A DNA stretch of 64,000 bases from a virus, in the IMG/VR virus record IMGVR_UViG_3300010151_000007, positions 1 to 64,000 of that record. One strand, given 5' to 3'. This document shows, piece after piece, positions 1 through 10,700 of this stretch. The stretch's first letter is position 1. Each line of letters starts with the position of its first letter. The position numbers were made by a program, and so were the translations under genes. The notes below the pieces were generated by a model, which had not been told where the DNA came from, searched no databases, and worked only from the letters and a program-made list of their open reading frames with translations.

Positions 1-90
1 CGCGCTTGCTATACATGGGCTGCTGGTGGACCTATCAGCGAAGACGACAAATCAATTGAATGGCAAAGTAAAAATGAAACTCCTACTTGA
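1..90 (+). CDS. 3' end of a phage protein truncated by the window start (…RACYTWAAGGPISEDDKSIEWQSKNETPT*)
   Basis: Frame 1 is open from base 1 to TGA at 88-90. The stop lies inside the leader repeat of the next gene. Not in the supplied track. Confidence 0.6.
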   Translation, partial: RACYTWAAGGPISEDDKSIEWQSKNETPT

Positions 91-454
91 AAATTGGAAT
101 TCGTTTTTAGCCGAAGAGAAAAAAACTATTATTGCTTATCACGGCAGTAATGTTCCGATTTACAAGTTTAGTCGAGATTATGGGGCACAAGGAGTCATGT
201 GGTTCTCTCAAAATAAAGACTTAATTCTCAGGGGAGAAAGCGGTGCTTGCTCAACCAAGTGGCTGATGACGGTAGAACTATCCGTTGATAGGACCGCTGG
301 CTGGGATGAGTACGATAAACTTGCTTTACAACAAATTGAAGATTCTGGATATGATAGCATTCTGCTCGATGATAATTGGGTTGTATTTGATCCAAAAAGA
401 ATCAAAGTTGTCAAGGTAGAAAAAACACCATGCAACATAAGGGGCGAACAATGA
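74..454 (+). CDS. Leader-bearing cargo protein, ADP-ribosyltransferase-like (H-type) domain
   Basis: Start moved to ATG 74 (MKLLLENWNSFLAEE). Motifs AYHGS, GVMWFS and GYDSI...VVFDPKRIK match the pattern of phage ART-like domains. Confidence 0.6.
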   Translation: MKLLLENWNSFLAEEKKTIIAYHGSNVPIYKFSRDYGAQGVMWFSQNKDLILRGESGACSTKWLMTVELSVDRTAGWDEYDKLALQQIEDSGYDSILLDDNWVVFDPKRIKVVKVEKTPCNIRGEQ

Positions 455-1083
455 AACTAATACTTGAAAATTGGCGGAAATACGTTAACGAAAATAAAGA
501 CTTGTTTACTTACATTAAGTCTGGTAGAAATCGGGATATATTTATGAATTATTCTGATACATATAACATTTATTTGGATTGGATCTCGTGGGATAAGAAG
601 GATCCTGCCGCCAGAGCTTATGTCAACCACTTTGATGAGATGGCCGCAAAGTATAGCGAGACAACAGGTGAATCTCCCTATTGGAAAAATCCCAGCGATA
701 TATGGGATGTCAAGCCGGAATTCTATAGATTTTTTGATCCCTCGGATCTTGTGGCCGCGATAAAACGGCAACAGGGTCGGTCAGATCCCGGTGCGGTGCG
801 TCGTCTCACCAAAAGACTTAAAAAGGATTATGATTCTATAGAAGCCGCAGAAGAAATGGCTAAAAAAACAAACGAACTGGCCAACCAAGCTTATAAGAGC
901 CTTATGAGTTATCGAAAAGAGTTTCTGGACCAAGGCGCCATTACCGGCGCGGAAGAAAATAAGCGAATCGTTGATCATTTGCCTTCTGCCTTTATTTATC
1001 GGCCATTCATGAATCCCCCAGGCTATGAAGGAACAGATCTGGCCGGTAAAGTCGATATCAGGGGAGCGCATTTAGAGCAATGA
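451..1083 (+). CDS. Leader-bearing hypothetical cargo protein
   Basis: Starts MKLILENWRKYVNE at ATG 451, in an ATGA overlap with the upstream stop. No recognisable domain. Confidence 0.75.
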   Translation: MKLILENWRKYVNENKDLFTYIKSGRNRDIFMNYSDTYNIYLDWISWDKKDPAARAYVNHFDEMAAKYSETTGESPYWKNPSDIWDVKPEFYRFFDPSDLVAAIKRQQGRSDPGAVRRLTKRLKKDYDSIEAAEEMAKKTNELANQAYKSLMSYRKEFLDQGAITGAEENKRIVDHLPSAFIYRPFMNPPGYEGTDLAGKVDIRGAHLEQ

Positions 1084-1631
1084 AACTCCTACTTGAAAAC
1101 TGGCGAAAGTATATAACAGAACAAACGGAAGTTTGGGGACATCATATTAGCCCAGAGGAAAAAGTCTTTGTTTCTGATAAACCTTATACAAGTTTTCGTA
1201 ACGTTCGACAGGAGACACCTGCACACTCGATGATTAAGCCTAAAGGTCTTTGGTATTCTTGCGGAGACAGTTGGGCCGAGTTCAGCAAACAGACATGGGA
1301 TCAAGTACGGGGAAATCACCTTTATGGGTTGGAACTAGGTGATAGTGTCCTTCAAATCTCAACAGAAGAAGAACTTGAACAGTTCATTGATAGGTTTTTG
1401 ACGCCGGGACAATTTGGAAAAGTTTTGGATTGGAAGAAAGTTCAAGACGAAGGGTATGCTGGTGTTGAAATCTGCCCTTATAACTGGGAAGCTCGCCAAC
1501 GTGCATTGAACGGGGATCCCAGATTTGAATGGTATTACACTTGGGACGTCGCTTCTGGATGTATATGGGATAGTAAAGGTGTAAAGAGTGTTAAGCTTTT
1601 AACGGAGAGAACAAATGAAACTCCTACTTGA
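1080..1631 (+). CDS. Leader-bearing cargo protein, possible ART-like fold
   Basis: Starts MKLLLENWRKYITE. KPKGLWYS, DWKKVQDEGYAGVEI and WYYTWDVASGCIWD resemble phage/giant-virus ART-like proteins. Confidence 0.55.
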   Translation: MKLLLENWRKYITEQTEVWGHHISPEEKVFVSDKPYTSFRNVRQETPAHSMIKPKGLWYSCGDSWAEFSKQTWDQVRGNHLYGLELGDSVLQISTEEELEQFIDRFLTPGQFGKVLDWKKVQDEGYAGVEICPYNWEARQRALNGDPRFEWYYTWDVASGCIWDSKGVKSVKLLTERTNETPT

Positions 1632-1689
1632 AAACTGGCGAAAGTATTTGAATGAGAGGGTTCTTCTTCCGTGTAGTTACTATTTATGA
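1615..1689 (+). pseudogene. Orphan leader without cargo (MKLLLENWRKYLNERVLLPCSYYL*)
   Basis: A perfect leader repeat followed by only 10 codons and TGA at 1687-1689. Confidence 0.7.
1679..1686 (+). promoter_or_regulatory. Putative late promoter element CTAnTTA (ACTATTTA)
   Basis: The same motif recurs just upstream of starts at 3074, 4902, 6960, 13370, 18409, 21421, 25187 and 51992. Confidence 0.55.
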
Positions 1690-1709
1690 GTGTCGACGGG
1701 GCACATAAA

Positions 1710-2000
1710 ATGAAAAAATTATTGAATGAATGGAAAGAGTTCGCGAGTAAAGAAAAGATTCAGGAATTGCCGGGCGGCGTTTCAACTTTCGATCGCAGCC
1801 GAATTGAAGGTTTTGCAAAGAAGTATCCAGATGCTGTCGCATTCATGCACGCCCATGAAGATGATCTGCTTCGCAAATGGCTTATGGTTATCAAACACCA
1901 AACCACCCCTGACGAAGCGAGGGCTTACGGAGAAGTCACCATTGGCTTCCAAGAAGCACCGAAATTGGATGCAGTCCAAGAGATGGATTTTAAAGAATGA
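1710..2000 (+). CDS. Small hypothetical cargo protein with variant leader
   Basis: Starts MKKLLNEWKEF at ATG 1710; ATGA-coupled to the next gene. Confidence 0.65.
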   Translation: MKKLLNEWKEFASKEKIQELPGGVSTFDRSRIEGFAKKYPDAVAFMHAHEDDLLRKWLMVIKHQTTPDEARAYGEVTIGFQEAPKLDAVQEMDFKE

Positions 2001-2725
2001 GAAGACTTCTTCAAGAGTTTCAGCATTTCCTCTCTGAAAATCGTGGGCTGCCCGGTTCTATTTTACGGATCGAAGAAAAGATGAGAGATCTCTATTCTCG
2101 ATATGAAGATGATCATTGGGAAACAATTTTTGTAAGATTCCGCACATTCCTCAAACGTCATTCTGGTTTTGAAAGATTGGGTGGCGGTTCTTTTCGTGAG
2201 ACATTCGCCTTCAAAGACAACAATGAGTTTGTGATCAAGATTGCAAAGTACAACGAATATAAAGGATACCGGGGTGGTGCAGGGTCTGCTCGCACATATA
2301 ATAAAAATGAAGCAAACCAGGAAATGCACACCAAGTATCCATCACTCTTTCCCAAAGTCTTCTATGCCGCCCCGGATGATTCTTGGTATATCACTCAACG
2401 AGTATATGTTGCAAAGGATGACCATACTTTAGCTCAAATGTTCGATGCGTCCTCGTGGTACGATGTTGTCGATTTTGTTTTGGTTATTCGTGTAGTAATC
2501 AGAAACGGTGATTCCTTCGAAGATGTCGAAACAGATAAAAAATATAAAATTCACCAACACGTATGGAGGAGAACAAAGAAATTTCTTCAATACCCTCAAC
2601 TTGTTGAATGGGCCAAAGCATCTGTTGAATTTGACGTTGACGTTGACGATGTTCGTTTCGGCAATGCCGGCTGGGTTATTGAAGATGGTCAGAAACGATT
2701 CATTATCCTTGACTATATGCTCTGA
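1997..2725 (+). CDS. Minimal protein-kinase-like cargo protein
   Basis: Leader MRRLLQEFQHFLSE, Gly-loop LGGGSFRETF, VIKIA lysine, NKNE glutamate, catalytic DVRFGN and DFG-like LDY. Confidence 0.75.
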   Translation: MRRLLQEFQHFLSENRGLPGSILRIEEKMRDLYSRYEDDHWETIFVRFRTFLKRHSGFERLGGGSFRETFAFKDNNEFVIKIAKYNEYKGYRGGAGSARTYNKNEANQEMHTKYPSLFPKVFYAAPDDSWYITQRVYVAKDDHTLAQMFDASSWYDVVDFVLVIRVVIRNGDSFEDVETDKKYKIHQHVWRRTKKFLQYPQLVEWAKASVEFDVDVDDVRFGNAGWVIEDGQKRFIILDYML

Positions 2726-2780
2726 ATAAAGAGGGTAACAAGAAACGTTTCGTAATCTTAGGCTATATTTTAGACTAGGC

Positions 2781-2808
2781 TTGACATTTTCCCTCTATCG
2801 GTTAAGTC
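2781..2808 (+). promoter_or_regulatory. Sigma70-like promoter TTGACA-N16-TAAGTC with CGGT before the -10
   Basis: Read directly; followed by the RBS AGGAGG and ATG 2824. Confidence 0.65.
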
Positions 2809-2823
2809 ATAGGAGGAAGAAAA

Positions 2824-3036
2824 ATGAAAACAGAAGAATTTTGGTTGAACGAGACTTATAACTTTCTTGGCACAATGCTTGAGATTGTGGAGCACGCGAA
2901 GTCTTTGACAGATTCATTTGAAGAGCAATTATTGTTCACAGAATCCGAACACCAGGACATGCGCGATCGATACGAAGACATACAACATCAATTGGCGGCA
3001 ATTCAGGAGAAGTTCGAAAAAATAATCAGTGCTTAA
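2824..3036 (+). CDS. Small acidic coiled-coil hypothetical protein
   Basis: 70 aa, with its own promoter, a strong RBS and a downstream terminator. Confidence 0.75.
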   Translation: MKTEEFWLNETYNFLGTMLEIVEHAKSLTDSFEEQLLFTESEHQDMRDRYEDIQHQLAAIQEKFEKIISA

Positions 3037-3040
3037 CCCA

Positions 3041-3064
3041 AAAGACTCGAAAGAGTCTTTCTTA
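3041..3064 (+). terminator. Rho-independent terminator
   Basis: AAAGACTC-GAAA-GAGTCTTT hairpin with a GNRA loop and a T-rich tail. Confidence 0.75.
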
Positions 3065-3085
3065 CTTTTGAGACCTATTTAACCC

Positions 3086-4405
3086 ATGAACAATAAATAC
3101 AAACAATTCCTCAATGAATCAACCTATTCTTTCGATTATGATTCCACACTTATCAAATATCGTTATGAGCGTGACGAGAATGGTGAGATCGAAGATGTGG
3201 TCTATGACCAGCCGCACGATGTCAATATCGGTAAACTTCAAGACCTTGCCTCAAAAGGCCATAGAATCGTCATAGTGACCTCTAGAGTGCTCCCTAAGGC
3301 AGATGGAACCCAGTTTGCCTGGGATGACACCCCTGGTCCGGAGCAGTTTATTAGGGACCACGGTTTACCTGTGGAGGAAGTTTTTTACACAGATGGAAAA
3401 CCAAAGATCGACACTCTTGTTAAGCTTGGCGTCGTGGCCCATTGGGATGATGATGAGAACGAAATCGAACACATCGATCGATGGAACCGAGAGAATCCAG
3501 ATAAAAGGATCAAGTGGTACCAAGTTCCAGTTGAAGAAGGTTTGACCGAGGCGCTTCGCTCCAAGGTTATCAAATTGATTGATGAAAATCAGAACGCAAA
3601 TTTAGAACAAATGATTATGGACCAGTTCTCTTCTCACCCATCAGGTCGTCCTTATGAAAATTCACAACTGACAGAAGAAGTAAATTTGGACAACATCCTT
3701 TCAGGATTTGATGACAGATATCTATTAGGTTTTATCAGGCGCTTGAAAGAGGGTACTTTAGAAAGAGAAGGTCTTCGCGACGTCCTGACTGCAAGATCAA
3801 TTTATTTGTTCACAACACATAGTGTCAAGACTTTAAGAGATCCTGAACTTTTCGATTCTGATAAAGCTCGCGGCATTATTGCGGGGACTTCATACTTTTT
3901 AGGCTTTAGAGGGCCAGGGGTGATATCCGGAAAAAAGGCGACGGCGTTGTTTGCCAAAATACCGACAAAACTTATCTACCAAATTGCAAATAACATCGTC
4001 GTCAAGCTTGCAAGGCTTGAAAATCCGTTGGGGACCACAACTATTTCTCGCGGAATGGTTTTGCCAACCACGGCGGTCGATGAATTGATTCAAAACGGTG
4101 TAGGTACGACTTTCAACATGCGGAGCATTGCTTCGTGGACAGATGATTTCGATACGGCGTTTAGTTTTGCGAGGGGAGCCCATGAGACAAAGATAAAAGA
4201 AGATGACAAAAATAGAGAAGAATATCAAAAAGTATTATTTGTCGCCGAAAACTCAAAGTTTGGAATCGGTATCGAAGATCTTAGTGGATATTCATCGGAA
4301 CAAGAATATATAGTGGGTGGTCGCCAAATGATTATTAAACAAGTCATTATTAAACGACCACTGAAAGGAGCGTCTTGGGCAATCATCAAGGTTGAACTTC
4401 GTTAA
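3086..4405 (+). CDS. HAD phosphatase fused to an R-S-E type ADP-ribosyltransferase domain
   Basis: Leader ends FLNE. HAD motifs DYDST, VTSR, GKPK and WDDD. C-terminal SRGM, SIASWT and SEQEY form an ART triad. Confidence 0.75.
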   Translation: MNNKYKQFLNESTYSFDYDSTLIKYRYERDENGEIEDVVYDQPHDVNIGKLQDLASKGHRIVIVTSRVLPKADGTQFAWDDTPGPEQFIRDHGLPVEEVFYTDGKPKIDTLVKLGVVAHWDDDENEIEHIDRWNRENPDKRIKWYQVPVEEGLTEALRSKVIKLIDENQNANLEQMIMDQFSSHPSGRPYENSQLTEEVNLDNILSGFDDRYLLGFIRRLKEGTLEREGLRDVLTARSIYLFTTHSVKTLRDPELFDSDKARGIIAGTSYFLGFRGPGVISGKKATALFAKIPTKLIYQIANNIVVKLARLENPLGTTTISRGMVLPTTAVDELIQNGVGTTFNMRSIASWTDDFDTAFSFARGAHETKIKEDDKNREEYQKVLFVAENSKFGIGIEDLSGYSSEQEYIVGGRQMIIKQVIIKRPLKGASWAIIKVELR

Positions 4406-4689
4406 GTCAACCTAGTCCAGCCTTGTTCGTGATAATAGGACTTAAACTTATCCAGTGTGACTTTTGAAAATCGTTGTGAATTAATGTGGAATATCTCTAT
4501 TATTTTTTTAGAGTATTCCACTTTTGTCGTTACGAAGTAGGTTTGTGTGATTTCGCAAAACCACAATTCACCCGTGCGAACGCGAAAAGTGTCCCTCCAG
4601 GCGACCGAATGACTTGTGTCCCATTCGTGCGGCGCATAAGTATCGGATATCGCTGGATTCCATTTTCTTTTCACGTATGTTTCATCCAC
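4402..4689 (-). CDS. Small hypothetical protein, paralog of 4671..4895
   Basis: RTGELWF...YFV and a C-terminal GW shared with its neighbour. Its stop overlaps the stop of 3086..4405. Confidence 0.6.
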   Translation of the reverse strand: MDETYVKRKWNPAISDTYAPHEWDTSHSVAWRDTFRVRTGELWFCEITQTYFVTTKVEYSKKIIEIFHINSQRFSKVTLDKFKSYYHEQGWTRLT

Positions 4690-4895
4690 CCGGTTTCCCG
4701 TGTCTTGTCGTCGACCATCGATGCAATGCTTTGTACATATGTTGTTTGAAAAGCTACGTCATATATTTTTACATATTCGCTCCCAGAACCAAACATATTC
4801 TGTCTGATGTACGGTTCAGATGAAATGATAAAATAGAAACGCATGTCTAATACGCGATGTGACCATAATTGGCCTTTCTTCGGCTCCTCTTTCAT
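4671..4895 (-). CDS. Small hypothetical protein (SH3/KOW-like)
   Basis: KKGQLWS...YFI and a C-terminal GW. Upstream GAGG RBS and promoter on the minus strand. Confidence 0.65.
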   Translation of the reverse strand: MKEEPKKGQLWSHRVLDMRFYFIISSEPYIRQNMFGSGSEYVKIYDVAFQTTYVQSIASMVDDKTRETGWMKHT

Positions 4896-4922
4896 GTTTC
4901 CTCTATTTACTTGTATACTGAC

Positions 4923-4951
4923 AATGTAACCGATTTGGAGTCAAATGACAA
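4923..4951 (-). promoter_or_regulatory. Sigma70-like promoter TTGTCA-N17-TACATT with CGGT before the -10
   Basis: Reverse-complement read. It precedes the two minus-strand genes and overlaps the ATG of 4945..6477. Confidence 0.55.
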
Positions 4952-6477
4952 ACGAAAAATACATCAAAGATTTTAGATTGAAACTTCTAAAAGAGAATTT
5001 GAGTGCGAACCTCGAAATGTTGATAAACCAACAATTGACTTCTCACCCCTCTGGTCGAGAATACAACGATGCGATCGATGGCATGATCGCTGAAGAGGTT
5101 AATATTGAAAACATTTTATCTGGTTTTGATATTACCTATCTCAAAGGACTCATTAATCGCTCCAAAACCAGAAGACCTCAAGACTTTGCCCACGACTCCA
5201 CAATTAAAGATTTGATCGCAGCTTATGCTATCTGGATGTTCACTGTCGCTAACGTGGAAACAGTGAGGAACCCAGACAATTTCAGTTCAGATTCTGCCAA
5301 GCCCCTCGCCTACAACAACCCTTCGTTAGTTTACAGCTACAGAGGTGAGATGAAGGAGCTTCCTGATGAGAGTCCTTACAAAAAGTTCGCTAGAATCAGG
5401 CACAAAATTCCTACAAAAATGTGGTATCAAATATCCAACCACATCGTTTCTACTCTTGCCTCAATGCCGCATCCATGGGGGCAACAAGTTGTTTTTCGTG
5501 GAATGAAGCTACCGCTAGAGGCTGTAAAGGCGCTGAAAGCTGGCGAGAATTTCAATATGATGAGAATAGGTTCATGGTCCACCGACGGCGTGATGGCAGA
5601 ATCATATGCCTTGAGGTACGATAGGAACTCGCTTAAAAATTGGAAACCTGTCTTGTTCCATGGTCTGACCAAGATTGGCGCACCAGTGGACATGTTCAGT
5701 GGATTCCGATTAGAGAACGAGGTGGTGGTTGGTGGTGGTCAAATGAAAATCCTCAAAATCGATTCAGACGACGATATCACCGTTGTACAAATCAGAATAG
5801 AACAAGGTACTCAATTACAACAAGAGGTGCTTCCGAAGCGGGCGCGCAAGGCGGTTGCCACAGCCGCACTAGGGGCCGCCCTGGGCGGCGGTATAGGGGC
5901 GGGAGCAGCTTCTAGCCTCGTGGGCGATCGAGGTATCACACCAAGAGTTGAACAACCTGTAGACACCACACAGAGCGTTGAAGACGAAGGGCCAGAAGCC
6001 ACCCGAAAAATGCCAACCGATGGCACATTTGATTGGTCGATGTCCCCCGATCCAACAATGATCTGGATTAGTCCAGATCAAATTCCAGATGATTATATTT
6101 TACCATCATCGGGTAAAACAGCGGGAGAATGGCGACACGAACTAATGAACAAAAAAATGAAGAGAGGCGGAAACACTTGGGATATAGATGACCTTAAAAG
6201 AGTTCTGTTTTCCAATGCGGCGGCATGGGGTTATTCAACTTCTAAAAACGTAATCGCGTTTGACAGACACCCCGATCATGGTTACAGGATGCTGCCCCCA
6301 AAATGGTCACTTGCTTATGAAGTTTACGAAAAAAAGATAGGTATAGAGAGAATGGAGGCAGTTTTGCAAAAAAGTGATCAAGAGCAAGCTCAAATTGCAC
6401 AGAATCTTGACCTAACTGCTGGGGAACTACGAAAAAAGTTACAATTAGCCTTGTCAAATTTGAGGGGCGCAAAATGA
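4945..6477 (+). CDS. R-S-E ADP-ribosyltransferase (paralog of the 3086 C-domain) fused to a membrane-anchored C-terminal domain
   Basis: VFRGM, IGSWST and LENEV motifs. Shares SHPSGR.Y...EEVN..NILSGFD with 3086..4405. A hydrophobic Gly/Ala helix follows LQQE-VLPKRARK. Confidence 0.72.
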   Translation: MTNEKYIKDFRLKLLKENLSANLEMLINQQLTSHPSGREYNDAIDGMIAEEVNIENILSGFDITYLKGLINRSKTRRPQDFAHDSTIKDLIAAYAIWMFTVANVETVRNPDNFSSDSAKPLAYNNPSLVYSYRGEMKELPDESPYKKFARIRHKIPTKMWYQISNHIVSTLASMPHPWGQQVVFRGMKLPLEAVKALKAGENFNMMRIGSWSTDGVMAESYALRYDRNSLKNWKPVLFHGLTKIGAPVDMFSGFRLENEVVVGGGQMKILKIDSDDDITVVQIRIEQGTQLQQEVLPKRARKAVATAALGAALGGGIGAGAASSLVGDRGITPRVEQPVDTTQSVEDEGPEATRKMPTDGTFDWSMSPDPTMIWISPDQIPDDYILPSSGKTAGEWRHELMNKKMKRGGNTWDIDDLKRVLFSNAAAWGYSTSKNVIAFDRHPDHGYRMLPPKWSLAYEVYEKKIGIERMEAVLQKSDQEQAQIAQNLDLTAGELRKKLQLALSNLRGAK

Positions 6478-7715: not shown

Positions 7716-10700
7716 ATGTTTGAAAACGATGATTATTTGAAGGAATGGGCAGAAACCGCCATCTTTGAGGCCACCGCAGCCAAGAAAAGGGGTGTTCAGT
7801 TACCTCAAGTTTTGGATCAAATCGAGGAATATATCAAGAATAACCCCGAAAATGAAACAAATCCGCGTGTTTTTATCCATTTTACTAACCTTCTGAAGCT
7901 CGGAACCAACCCGAGACAGAGTTATGACACCCCGATTGGTATTTTCTCTTATCCTTTGACAAGTGAAATCTTGGATGATTATCGCAATAAGTCTCTTCCT
8001 TTCATGGGCGATTCGCAATATGTGTTCATTTTCGCCCAGAAGCCTGATAAAAACATAATTCTTGACAACATTTCGGAACAGACGTTCAAAGAATATATAA
8101 TAGATGCGAAAAGATTGATAGTCAACCCTGAAGACCAAGACAAGCCGATTGGTCGTGTTGAACTTTCGAACCCACGACGCGGTTTTCCTTCGTCCGCCGG
8201 GACCGAAGGAACTTATTATGATTTCGGGGACGGCCCACCAAGGAAAACCGTCGAGGAAATCCTTGCACTTTCGGATGAAGAAATTTTCGATATTCTTGAA
8301 ATGCGCAGCGTCTCGCTTCAAAAGTCGTGGGATGCACTCGGGCGTGTTGAAGGTGGTGACCTTGTCAAGATAAAGATAATTGAGGCCATCTACAACGAAG
8401 GGGTAGATCCTTCGAGTGCCATGGTGAATTTAGTGGCGTCACTACTTTCAAACGAAGCTAAGGTGAAATGGAATTATTTGATGGGCATTGATCCAAAAAA
8501 TCTGCCCCCTAGATTATCTACAGAGATAATGCAGCGTTTTGAAAAGGCTATCGACGATATGAAAGAGTTTCACCCACCGGCCACTCTAACTTGGATAGAT
8601 TTTTATTCAGAACGCAAGGAGTATTGGAGTGACTGGGTTTCTGCTTTGATAGAAACCGCTCGAAAAATGAAGCCAACAGTTCTCGCGGCGTTTTCAGCTT
8701 CGCTGCCCACACTATTATTAGAAATACTAAAATTCATACTGGAAAATTCAATCGGGACCACTAAACACTATGAACGAGTGTGGCAAAAAAACTTTAATCC
8801 CCCTTTTTCTAACATCCTCGTCGATCCCCACGACGACGATGAAGATTTCGACGGCGACGATGTTCCATTTCAAGAGCATCTAGAAATAGACGAAGGCATG
8901 CGCGAAGGTGTTGGTATATCAATTGAAAATTACAGGGCGACGATCGCAAAGGGTATGAACGGCGCAAACATTCAAACACCACTGGGTAAGTTTTGGAACA
9001 TTACGCGACTGCTTGGGCACAAAGTCTCGGATATCAAAAGAACCAAATCCCCTTCCAACCGAAATCGTACACACATGCTTGCATGGGGTCAGATGCTAAG
9101 ACTCTTAGGTATTGATGGTGTTGTGGATATGGGGCAATCTCTAATCCACCCGAATGAACCGCATCAGGCCGTGTTCTTTGGCAAGCAAGCAATTCGCATT
9201 TTGGGGTCGTTCGAAAACCCCCATGCAAACAAAAACAAAAAAAAGAAGAAGGATAAAGAACTCATCAGTGTGCGAGTTGGGTATCCTATGGTTACCATGT
9301 ATGATTTCAATCAAGTGTTTCAAGCATCGAAGAGTAATGAAACTTGGGCTAAATTTCTGAAACAGGTCGGGGCGTTTGATGAATATTATAGCAGTGAAAA
9401 AGACTCTTTAGCTAATCAGCAACTTTGGGGGCTCGATGGCAACCACTTGAAACCTCTGAACGAAATGTTAAACTGGATTCAGTCTGAAGGTTCTCAATTG
9501 CCTTATTTCCTCAAAGGTTCCAAAAGGAAAATTATTGAAAGCTACAATTTCGCCGATCATATGGGGGCGAACTTAAGCTCTTGTCTACTTTTCTATATTT
9601 CGTTAGTCAATACAACCTTTCCGGGCGAACCAGAGAGTGTCGAAGATAAAATAAAACATCGTTTAAACGTGGTTAATAATTTCTTACTTAATCCGAGAAC
9701 ATATGCTGCTTTCACAAAATCATTTCTCAACCTATTTGCGGCACACCGTGAATACCAGACTGTAATTGCAGATTTTCAAGAAGCATCGTACAGATATGTT
9801 ACAGACACCCTGGCACGTTTTACAAAAAGCAAACATGGGCAGGCGATTGGAATCAAAGATCCAACCTTTGGGCCGGAGAATATCCAAAGAATAGGCGCTG
9901 CCTTGGAAGTTATGGATAATGATGAAGATTTCCTTTTCCCAGAAGAGGGTGAGGAATATAGGCAAATGGTCGCATACCAAAAAACTGTATTAAGGAAGAA
10001 TATCCCCCCTATGGGCAAACTTTTGTTCGAATTGGGCTCTGGAGATGAGAGTAGGCAAAAGAAAGCCCTTGAAAAAATCTTTCAGATGGCTAATACCCCT
10101 GGTAGCTCAACCGGAAGCACCCTTGCCTTCACTGGTCTTACTAAGTTGATGCAAGTATTATCGGCGGCATCGTTGGAGTCTCGCCGCAATGTTTTTAGCA
10201 GTGAATCAATCGAGTATCTCGGAAGAGAAACGATTATAGATATAATCAAGGGCATTCTTTATCTTTCAAAGAATTCTAAAGAAATCGCAAGAGACGAGCA
10301 GGGTATGTTTGACTTCTTCCAGGGACTCGAAATGAGATTGGGATTCCTTAATTATTCAAACTCTGACGGTTTGACGGTGAACATTTTCAGATTTCAGGAG
10401 ATGATGAGCGAATTATTTAAAGATGATTCAGAATCAGCTTCTTTGGTAGAACAGGAAAAAACCTCTTTCATTAAAATGAGTAAAAAACGGGTTTCAAGCA
10501 TGTCTGATGTGGAAGATGCAATGGACGCACTTCGGAAGAAAATAAAAGCACAAGAAGAGGTGCTCGCCCAGTCGGAAGATTCCGACGAATTGCCGAGTGA
10601 GAACGACAACAACGTCATCCTCGATAATCGATCGCGTCTTAAAATCTACAAAGCGAGTTTAGAATCCTATAACTTGACTCTCAAGCATCCGTTTTTCTTA

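Follow-up and report, generated by a model that had tools for sequence, protein, structure and literature searches.

What joins a series of genes that begin alike and then have nothing in common? The question is posed by positions 1–1689 of a 64-kb stretch of viral DNA (the window; the first 64 kb of the 100,326-bp IMG/VR record IMGVR_UViG_3300010151_000007), where a leader of ~34–45 nt recurs in four direct copies, each the start of an open reading frame (ORF), with the genes abutting one another. A first-pass annotation had proposed that this leader is a junction at which cargo genes are gained, lost or shuffled by recombination, and that it also terminates the gene upstream. Leader breakpoints in relatives and frozen synonymous sites both support that proposal: judged from sequence comparison, the leader DNA is the point where cassettes are deleted, inserted and replaced, and region 1–1689 would form the end of a polycistronic run of effector cassettes.

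The record is linear and ~55% complete, and has genes for a terminase, portal, major head protein and tail tube of the T4 type, a baseplate wedge protein, a Mre11–Rad50-like fusion and a Peptidase_S77 prohead protease (L002:6860–7462; PF03420, E = 2e-30, 106 bits against a cut-off of 27; phrog_207, 9e-52). Its major capsid protein shares only 37–45% identity with the nearest cultured counterparts, from Microcystis phage Mel-JY01 and Flavobacterium 'immuto' phages, which therefore places the record in a distant, uncultured T4-like lineage; the predicted source is an uncultured marine, distantly T4-like myovirus. Circular closure was rejected, because the contig shows no terminal repeat and the ORF at its start is the tail of a C6 cassette. 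Contigs or pieces compared with it, from metagenomes and IMG/VR, are labelled L001–L164; all comparisons use short-read metagenome assemblies.

The pattern ATGAAACTCCTACTTGAAAAYTGG (up to three mismatches) matches the + strand at 74, 451, 1080 and 1615, with no match in 100 shuffles. The copies at 1080 and 1615, described earlier as identical over 33 of 33 nt, agree at 34 of 34 (1079–1112 and 1614–1647), and those from 73 and 450 are 79% and 82% identical to them. Behind this leader the three cargoes are mutually unrelated, as had been claimed, and fall into separate clusters (C72, C71 and C16). Viral contigs were scanned with a degenerate DNA pattern for MKL[LI]LENW that leaves the three leucine codons free. 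Among the matches listed, the leader is present in upwards of 120 IMG/VR contigs (a lower bound) and in at least 139 unique contexts (L003–L122; consensus MKLLLENWRx[YF][LI]xE), preceding at least 72 unrelated cargo clusters. Residues M1, K2, E6, N7 and W8 are invariant in 65 cluster representatives, whose whole alignment has a mean column identity of 6%. Leader DNA is absent from all records of the phage collection searched, so that no cultured phage there carries it, and the string MKLLLENW has no match in the literature text searched.

Cassette exchange at the leader

Relatives change their cassette content with breakpoints in the leader, the check that the first-pass annotation had named. 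Five contigs from five samples have one upstream flank in common (90–97% identical in the compared pairs; L020 is assigned to the set by flank-motif match only) and carry different arrays behind it: leader-C1 (L020 and L030), leader-C20-leader-C1 (L054), leader-C7-leader-C1 (L106) and leader-C20-leader-C21-leader-C7-leader-C1 (L037). All junctions are seamless and lie within the first ~50 nt of the leader. L131 and L132, with flanks 92–99% identical, differ by three indels amounting to four cassettes, every boundary falling between −3 and +42 of a leader.

The window itself provides a further case. Positions 72–476 match two Tara contigs (L163, 93.8% DNA identity; L164, 92.3%), from 2 nt before the leader at 74 to 25 nt into the leader at 451. 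Nothing else of the 100-kb contig is common to these two, except, in L163, a 76-nt C6 tail (81.6%) 2 kb further upstream and a 30-nt leader-only match. Relative to L163, the studied contig therefore lacks two cassettes between C6 and the cassette at 74, which has an ADP-ribosyltransferase (ART)-like cargo; in L164 both neighbours of the ART cassette differ from those here. Cassette C21 is 97% identical between L037 and L047 and bounded by leaders, the two contigs otherwise having only leader-to-leader matches of 37–53 nt. Over the whole comparison, leader windows covering just 1.06% of the sequence contain 94 of 542 internal homology ends (17%), a 16-fold enrichment, and crossover points are spread from −3 to ~+50 within the leader. 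Identical 33-mers are eight times commoner within arrays than between contigs, and occur only in adjacent leaders; the 1080/1615 pair therefore looks like a recent event.

Chimeric joins at the repeat are possible, since the assemblies are from short reads and many arrays lie at contig ends. De Bruijn assemblers could jump between co-occurring phages at a common 30–45-nt leader and so produce chimeric arrays; all the data are metagenome contigs, this contig and several other loci begin or end inside arrays, and the Tara contigs L163 and L164 are short. Identical arrays are nevertheless recovered from independent samples (L053/L115, 100% over 6.6 kb; L017/L023, 99.99% over 12.4 kb), the U-L-C1 haplotype is seen twice (L020 and L030), and orphan leaders and a microdeletion inside an L037 leader are real sequence states, not joins. 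Exact repeats here are also shorter than typical final k-mers and reads. We give an assembly artefact only a slim chance of explaining the shuffling. Many leader arrays sit at a contig end or run across it, and some contigs have them at both ends (L033/L074, L026/L095, L048/L084 and the start of this contig), a pattern suggesting that they break assemblies or mark population-variable islands.

The leader DNA is also conserved beyond what its peptide demands. Its first 27–45 nt of coding DNA are near-identical across cassettes and across otherwise diverged phages (in assembled contigs), and synonymous sites, proposed earlier as a test, proved more conserved than expected. Codons CTC at Leu3, CTA at Leu4, CTT at Leu5 and CGA at Arg9 occupy 57%, 71%, 83% and 57% of leaders, against backgrounds in the same ORFs of 8%, 12%, 25% and 13.5%, respectively (binomial p for the dominant codons between 1e-25 and 1e-46, over leader contexts among the matches listed). 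The three leucines are fixed to three different, mostly rare codons, and codons 11–14 are close to background use. Information content stands at ~0.3 bits up to the ATG, reaches 2 bits precisely there and has fallen away by ~+42. Homologous cassette pairs (20–80% amino-acid identity, scored at conserved amino acids with four- and sixfold codon choice) served as the control for ancestry: their codon identity is 28–39% in cargo versus 49–93% at leader codons 3, 4, 5 and 9, and at these codons it is still 49% in pairs with unrelated cargoes.

Selection on translation initiation could instead account for the frozen sites. Here the leader would be held by its role in the mRNA (initiation, coupling, 5′ codon effects), turnover would come from illegitimate events in a hypervariable region, and the leader would be its only conserved island, so that homology would seem to end there for that reason alone. 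The abrupt start of the conserved block at the ATG fits this, rare codons at 5′ ends are a known feature of expression, and ATGA overlaps are common throughout this genome. Leaders with CTCCT at codons 3–4 have an upstream Shine–Dalgarno-like motif in 23 of 68 cases (34%) versus 48 of 71 (68%) for the others (p = 9e-5); this anti-correlation hints at a link with translation, and could stem from lineage or from a connection with translational coupling. Illegitimate events, however, would not repeat seamless, in-frame leader-to-leader junctions at both ends of an indel, nor set a single 92–97% identical cassette, leader-bounded on both sides, in unrelated surroundings. Native leaders are also not less folded than every recoding (means of −4.9 versus −2.7 and −6.1 kcal/mol). 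We consider it unlikely that mRNA selection combined with illegitimate turnover is the explanation. Two other ideas were dropped: a hairpin sequestering the Shine–Dalgarno motif (upstream AGGAG with leader CUCCU), as CTCCT leaders have fewer such motifs upstream, not more; and the leader as a copy of a candidate late-promoter octamer, ACTAHTTA, with only a 6/8 match by eye.

We favour an array of leader-tagged effector cassettes in which leader DNA is the exchange junction, the cargoes are injected and homologous recombination drives exchange; taken whole, this reading seems to us probable, with considerable reserve. Each cassette is a 14-residue N-terminal leader fused to an unrelated cargo. 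The leader would act like the T4 capsid-targeting sequence (CTS) and load the protein into the prohead core, the S77 (gp21-type) protease would clip it after a hydrophobic-x-Glu motif, and the clipped cargo would be injected together with the DNA. Exchange would use the phage's general homologous recombination on 27–45 nt of identity, without a dedicated recombinase. A crossover just inside the ORF would leave each product in frame, with its start codon and tag; and because cassettes abut without spacers, the next leader also supplies the stop (the TGA of ATGA, or a TGA 14 nt in, giving 'NETPT' tails). T4-type phages are highly recombinogenic. Homologous recombination has been argued likewise for the PeSL (promoter-early stem-loop) cassettes of such phages (PMC2839356).

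Besides possible chimeric joins and selection on initiation, several points count against this reading. A homology of 27–45 nt is short for efficient homologous recombination, and no RecA-family (RecA/UvsX) gene was found in the 100-kb record, itself ~55% complete. Leaders are 74% alike within arrays and 70% alike between contigs, so gene conversion inside one genome would be weak. Packaging, cleavage and injection are predictions for the MKLLLENW leader. MKLLLENWRKYLNE and the T4 CTS (MKTYQEFIAE) share only Met-Lys and the terminal x-Glu, in peptides too short for statistics.

The array at 1–1689 and its stops

The features of the array and of the genes just downstream are collected in the table.

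Table. Leader copies and genes from position 1 to 2725 of the window
Feature	Position	Strand	Leader or start	Length	Remarks
Truncated upstream cassette, 3′ end (C6 type)	1..90	+			Lacks its own stop and continues 17 nt into the following leader; ends ...KNETPT-stop
Cassette 1	74..454	+	MKLLLENWNSFLAE (74–115)	126 aa	ART-PolyVal-like cargo; stop in the ATGA of the next leader (451–454)
Cassette 2	451..1083	+	MKLILENWRKYVNE (451–492)	210 aa	196-aa cargo; stop in ATGA 1080–1083
Cassette 3	1080..1631	+	MKLLLENWRKYITE (1080–1121)	183 aa	phrog_8582 cargo (unknown function); ends ...TNETPT-stop inside the next leader
Orphan leader	1615..1689	+	MKLLLENWRKYLNE (full 14-aa tag)	24 aa	Tag plus 10 residues, then stop; first 34 nt identical to the copy at 1080
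Diverged-leader gene	1710..2000	+	MKKLLNEWKEF	96 aa	In-frame ATG at 1686 overlaps the stop of the orphan
Diverged-leader gene	1997..2725	+	MRRLLQEFQHFLSE	242 aa	phrog_4301; ATGA overlap with the preceding gene

The contig begins inside the array, because its first ORF (tblastn matches to leader-bearing C6 ORFs in L031, L047, L073, L099 and others) corresponds to their C-termini. Family searches (Pfam and PHROG) with the cassette 2 cargo gave no match; the cassette 3 cargo has a homolog in L013. Aligned to the start of a C45-type cassette (L052), the orphan at 1615 matches it to ~+51, after which identity decays, and arrays in L053/L115 and L111 likewise end in orphan leaders. It reads as the scar of a deleted C45-type cargo and/or as a terminal homology arm of the array, which could supply downstream homology for exchange of the last cassette. 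Viral contigs searched with 1997–2725 and with the gene at 3086–4405 yielded no related loci, and a homologous-protein search with 1997–2725 returned its own cluster only.

The leader ends the gene upstream of it, as had been proposed. In the ORF list the genes ending at 454 and 1083 stop in the ATGA overlap, and those ending at 90 and 1631 finish in NETPT within the repeat, both as first described. More widely, among the matches listed, 69 of 142 upstream ORFs (unique contexts) end in ATGA and 16 of 142 at the +14 TGA, so that stops supplied by the leader close 85 of 142 junctions (60%). The earlier statement that the copies at 74, 1080 and 1615 carry stops in both alternative frames is correct for these three, but the count is too low; all four copies do so, that at 451 reading AAT GAA ACT AAT ACT TGA. 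The first stop follows from the Met-Lys start, which gives ATGA automatically, and the second from CTT-GAA at Leu5-Glu6. Several variants of the leader give rise to 'NET..' tails, and the type of stop is constant for a given cargo whatever cassette follows. CTT at Leu5 is the most conserved of the leucine codons; all three are frozen to different codons, so the −1-frame TGA may be incidental.

The leader peptide and its cargoes

The tag closes on a hydrophobic-x-Glu motif: Glu is encoded at codon 14 in 105 of 139 contexts, and Leu or Ile mostly at codon 12 (among the matches listed). Given this ending and the S77 head protease in the genome, the leader is most likely a capsid-targeting propeptide on injected effectors, cut by that protease after hydrophobic-x-Glu. 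In T4 the CTS is a propeptide of 10–19 residues, and in IPIII its processing depends on CTS residues 8 and 10 (PMC9026906; for the CTS, Mullaney and Black 1996 as cited there). An Asp placed at the T4 cleavage position prevents cutting while loading still takes place (PMC9026906). Polyvalent proteins, a class of giant phage polypeptides, are predicted to be injected with phage DNA (PMC5512222).

The leader might instead be a tag for something else (a helix that binds a partner, targeting to the membrane or for secretion, or regulated degradation), in which case its role as a DNA junction would still hold. The capsid-loading role is a prediction, no homology between the leader and the T4 CTS can be detected, and some cassettes lose the x-Glu end. 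Most copies, though, do end in hydrophobic-x-Glu in a genome that encodes the S77 protease; one cargo family is found in polyvalent proteins predicted to be injected, too, and after other hydrophobic-x-Glu tags; the neighbouring ART-like genes at 3086 and 4945 have short starts that resemble a CTS; and the tag is, judged from sequence, too polar and short for a signal peptide. A different tag function is, in our estimate, likewise improbable. The L037 copy of the C7 leader (2249–2300) illustrates loss of the tag end: it lacks codons 9–16, MKLLLENW-RDTSWE standing against MKLLLENWRQYITEDWRDTSWE in L106 (2429–2500). The loss is an internal deletion between two TGGCG repeats, which takes away x-Glu and leaves MKLLLENWRDTSWE.

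Cargo kinds in the cassettes comprise ART-PolyVal, kinases, nucleotidyltransferases, NUDIX and HAD, with Pfam matches among cluster representatives to AAA_33, Zeta_toxin, PolyA_pol, NUDIX, Pkinase and HAD_SAK_1. The cassette 1 protein matches ART-PolyVal (PF18760) at E = 4.8e-4 and 21.3 bits, below the 31.2-bit gathering cut-off; its tblastn-confirmed homologs (29–41% identity) score 42–52 bits against the same cut-off, and by way of them its cargo is assigned, as a prediction, to the ART-PolyVal family. The same domain is found within giant polyvalent proteins of 1,200–3,800 residues, and in small proteins behind other tags ending in hydrophobic-x-Glu (MIKLKDLLNE and MLTFKQFLNE). At 90% identity the ART cassette clusters into 16 members on ~75 contigs, whereas its neighbours' clusters have three members, which fits a travelling cassette.

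Variants of the tag and its surroundings occur in several relatives. The L132 leaders at 10001, 5766, 11996 and 13616 start with GTG (GTGA overlap) in place of the ATG of L131; the tag therefore has no fixed start codon. In L130 (9662–10312) an ART-PolyVal cargo is fused behind a small domain (…GYKIVA…) under a single MKTSSWRKFLLE tag, and in L132 that domain is a separate cassette just upstream of ART-PolyVal, which may represent fusion or fission of cassettes. Other small genes bear a second type of tag, MKI[TS]K.KL..IIKEE, often after MKLLLENW arrays (genome 76171–76874, that is L001:13171–13874; L131:12623–12907; L164:4284–5968).

Downstream of the array, shorter tags open the neighbouring genes at 2824–3036 (MKTEEFWLNE) and 3086–4405 (MNNKYKQFLNE). 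Both look closer to MKTYQEFIAE, as does MRRLLQEFQHFLSE at 1997, and MNNKYKQFLNE is similar to MLTFKQFLNE, the tag of an L144 ART-PolyVal protein. The genes at 3086–4405 and 4945–6477 encode large paralogous proteins with a common C-terminal domain carrying R / S-x-S / E-x-E-like motifs and a weak Pfam ART match (E = 0.044); they may be Alt-like ADP-ribosyltransferases. The 3086–4405 product also has a HAD/PNK-like N terminus (phrog_415, phrog_1238).

Known cassette systems and the linker idea

The closest parallel is with the internal protein (IP) loci of T-even phages, which hold leader-tagged, polymorphic, injected proteins (Repoila et al. 1994, as cited in PMC3012670, PMC2839356 and PMC12373910). 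In both, unrelated small proteins have a common short N-terminal leader ending in a gp21 cleavage motif, an S77 prohead protease is encoded, and loci are highly polymorphic in gene number, order and identity; IP cargoes are injected anti-host proteins, as the cargoes here would be. The leader here differs in sequence and has 14 residues rather than the 10 of the IPIII CTS (T4 propeptides span 10–19). IP shuffling is ascribed to intergenic blocks of promoter and stem-loop (PMC2839356), whereas the present array lacks intergenic DNA and has its junction in the coding leader itself. It is also on a larger scale, with at least 72 cargo families in more than 120 contigs, in a system known from sequence alone.

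PeSL cassettes of T4-type phages (Arbiol et al. 2010, PMC2839356; Comeau et al. 2014, PMC4122927) were likened there to integrons without an integrase. They too have short conserved repeats flanking ORFan cassettes, and close relatives differ by repeat-to-repeat indels, as in the shared-flank set, L131/L132 and the comparison of this contig with L163 and L164. PeSLs, however, are non-coding, with an intergenic sigma-70-like promoter and a terminator stem-loop for each cassette; the leader is coding and gives start codon, tag and stop within one operon of genes that overlap by ATGA or by 17 nt. Promoter- and terminator-like sites in 1–5000 are not above shuffles, and the array itself has no + strand terminator-like site and one promoter-like match (1205–1234).

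The first-pass annotation had spoken of an integron-like array with no integrase in view. The absence stands over 100 kb: PF00589, the tyrosine integrase/IntI family, has no match in the 100,326-bp record (~55% complete). The integron likeness is analogy only. Integron arrays are likewise tandem, promoterless and unrelated in their cassettes, with a repeated junction element and gain or loss of whole cassettes. Here, in a lytic-type phage, the junction lies inside ORFs and the crossover varies, and no attC-like fold was found in the leader contexts (DNA fold z-scores −0.05, +1.0, −1.8 and −0.8). A site-specific recombinase encoded in the missing 45% of the genome could act on the leader, and the architecture, the promoterless cassettes and the orphan terminal site do recall attI/attC arrays. 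In addition to the missing integrase and hairpin, the spread of crossovers from −3 to ~+50 is as expected for homology-driven exchange, and we give a true integron-like system almost no credence. The locus belongs to neither the integrons nor the PeSLs; the resemblance is functional only.

Polyvalent proteins (Iyer et al. 2017, PMC5512222) have several cargo types in common with the cassettes (ART-PolyVal, HAD_SAK_1, Zeta/AAA kinases and nucleotidyltransferases) and are also predicted to enter the host with the DNA. Their domains are fused in one giant polypeptide, whereas here they are separate genes, each with its own predicted cleavable tag. The array is a seamless variant of the cassette shuffling known from T4 IP genes. 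What is new here is that the coding leader itself is the junction, without a spacer and spread over a large marine lineage.

Short conserved sequences, or 'linkers', are said to direct modular exchange between phages, an idea credited to Botstein and Susskind. If our reading is right, the leader would be a concrete sequence-level example of such a linker, placed inside coding sequence so that every exchange gives a working, correctly addressed protein. A more far-reaching suggestion is that second-order selection keeps the leader's nucleotide sequence as a universal in-frame linker for a pool of pan-oceanic, distantly T4-like phages, one ~40-nt element serving as start codon, head-loading tag, protease site, upstream stop in both other frames and recombination site. 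This is tentative, and we hold it doubtful as it stands; were it true, the pool would be an open commons of at least 70 injected-effector families, usable by any member phage without an integrase. The favoured reading would also mean that a simple motif marks a large unexplored catalogue of proteins probably injected by abundant ocean phages, spanning ADP-ribosyltransferases, kinases, nucleotidyltransferases, NUDIX and HAD enzymes, and would suggest a natural design for loading foreign proteins into T4-type capsids.

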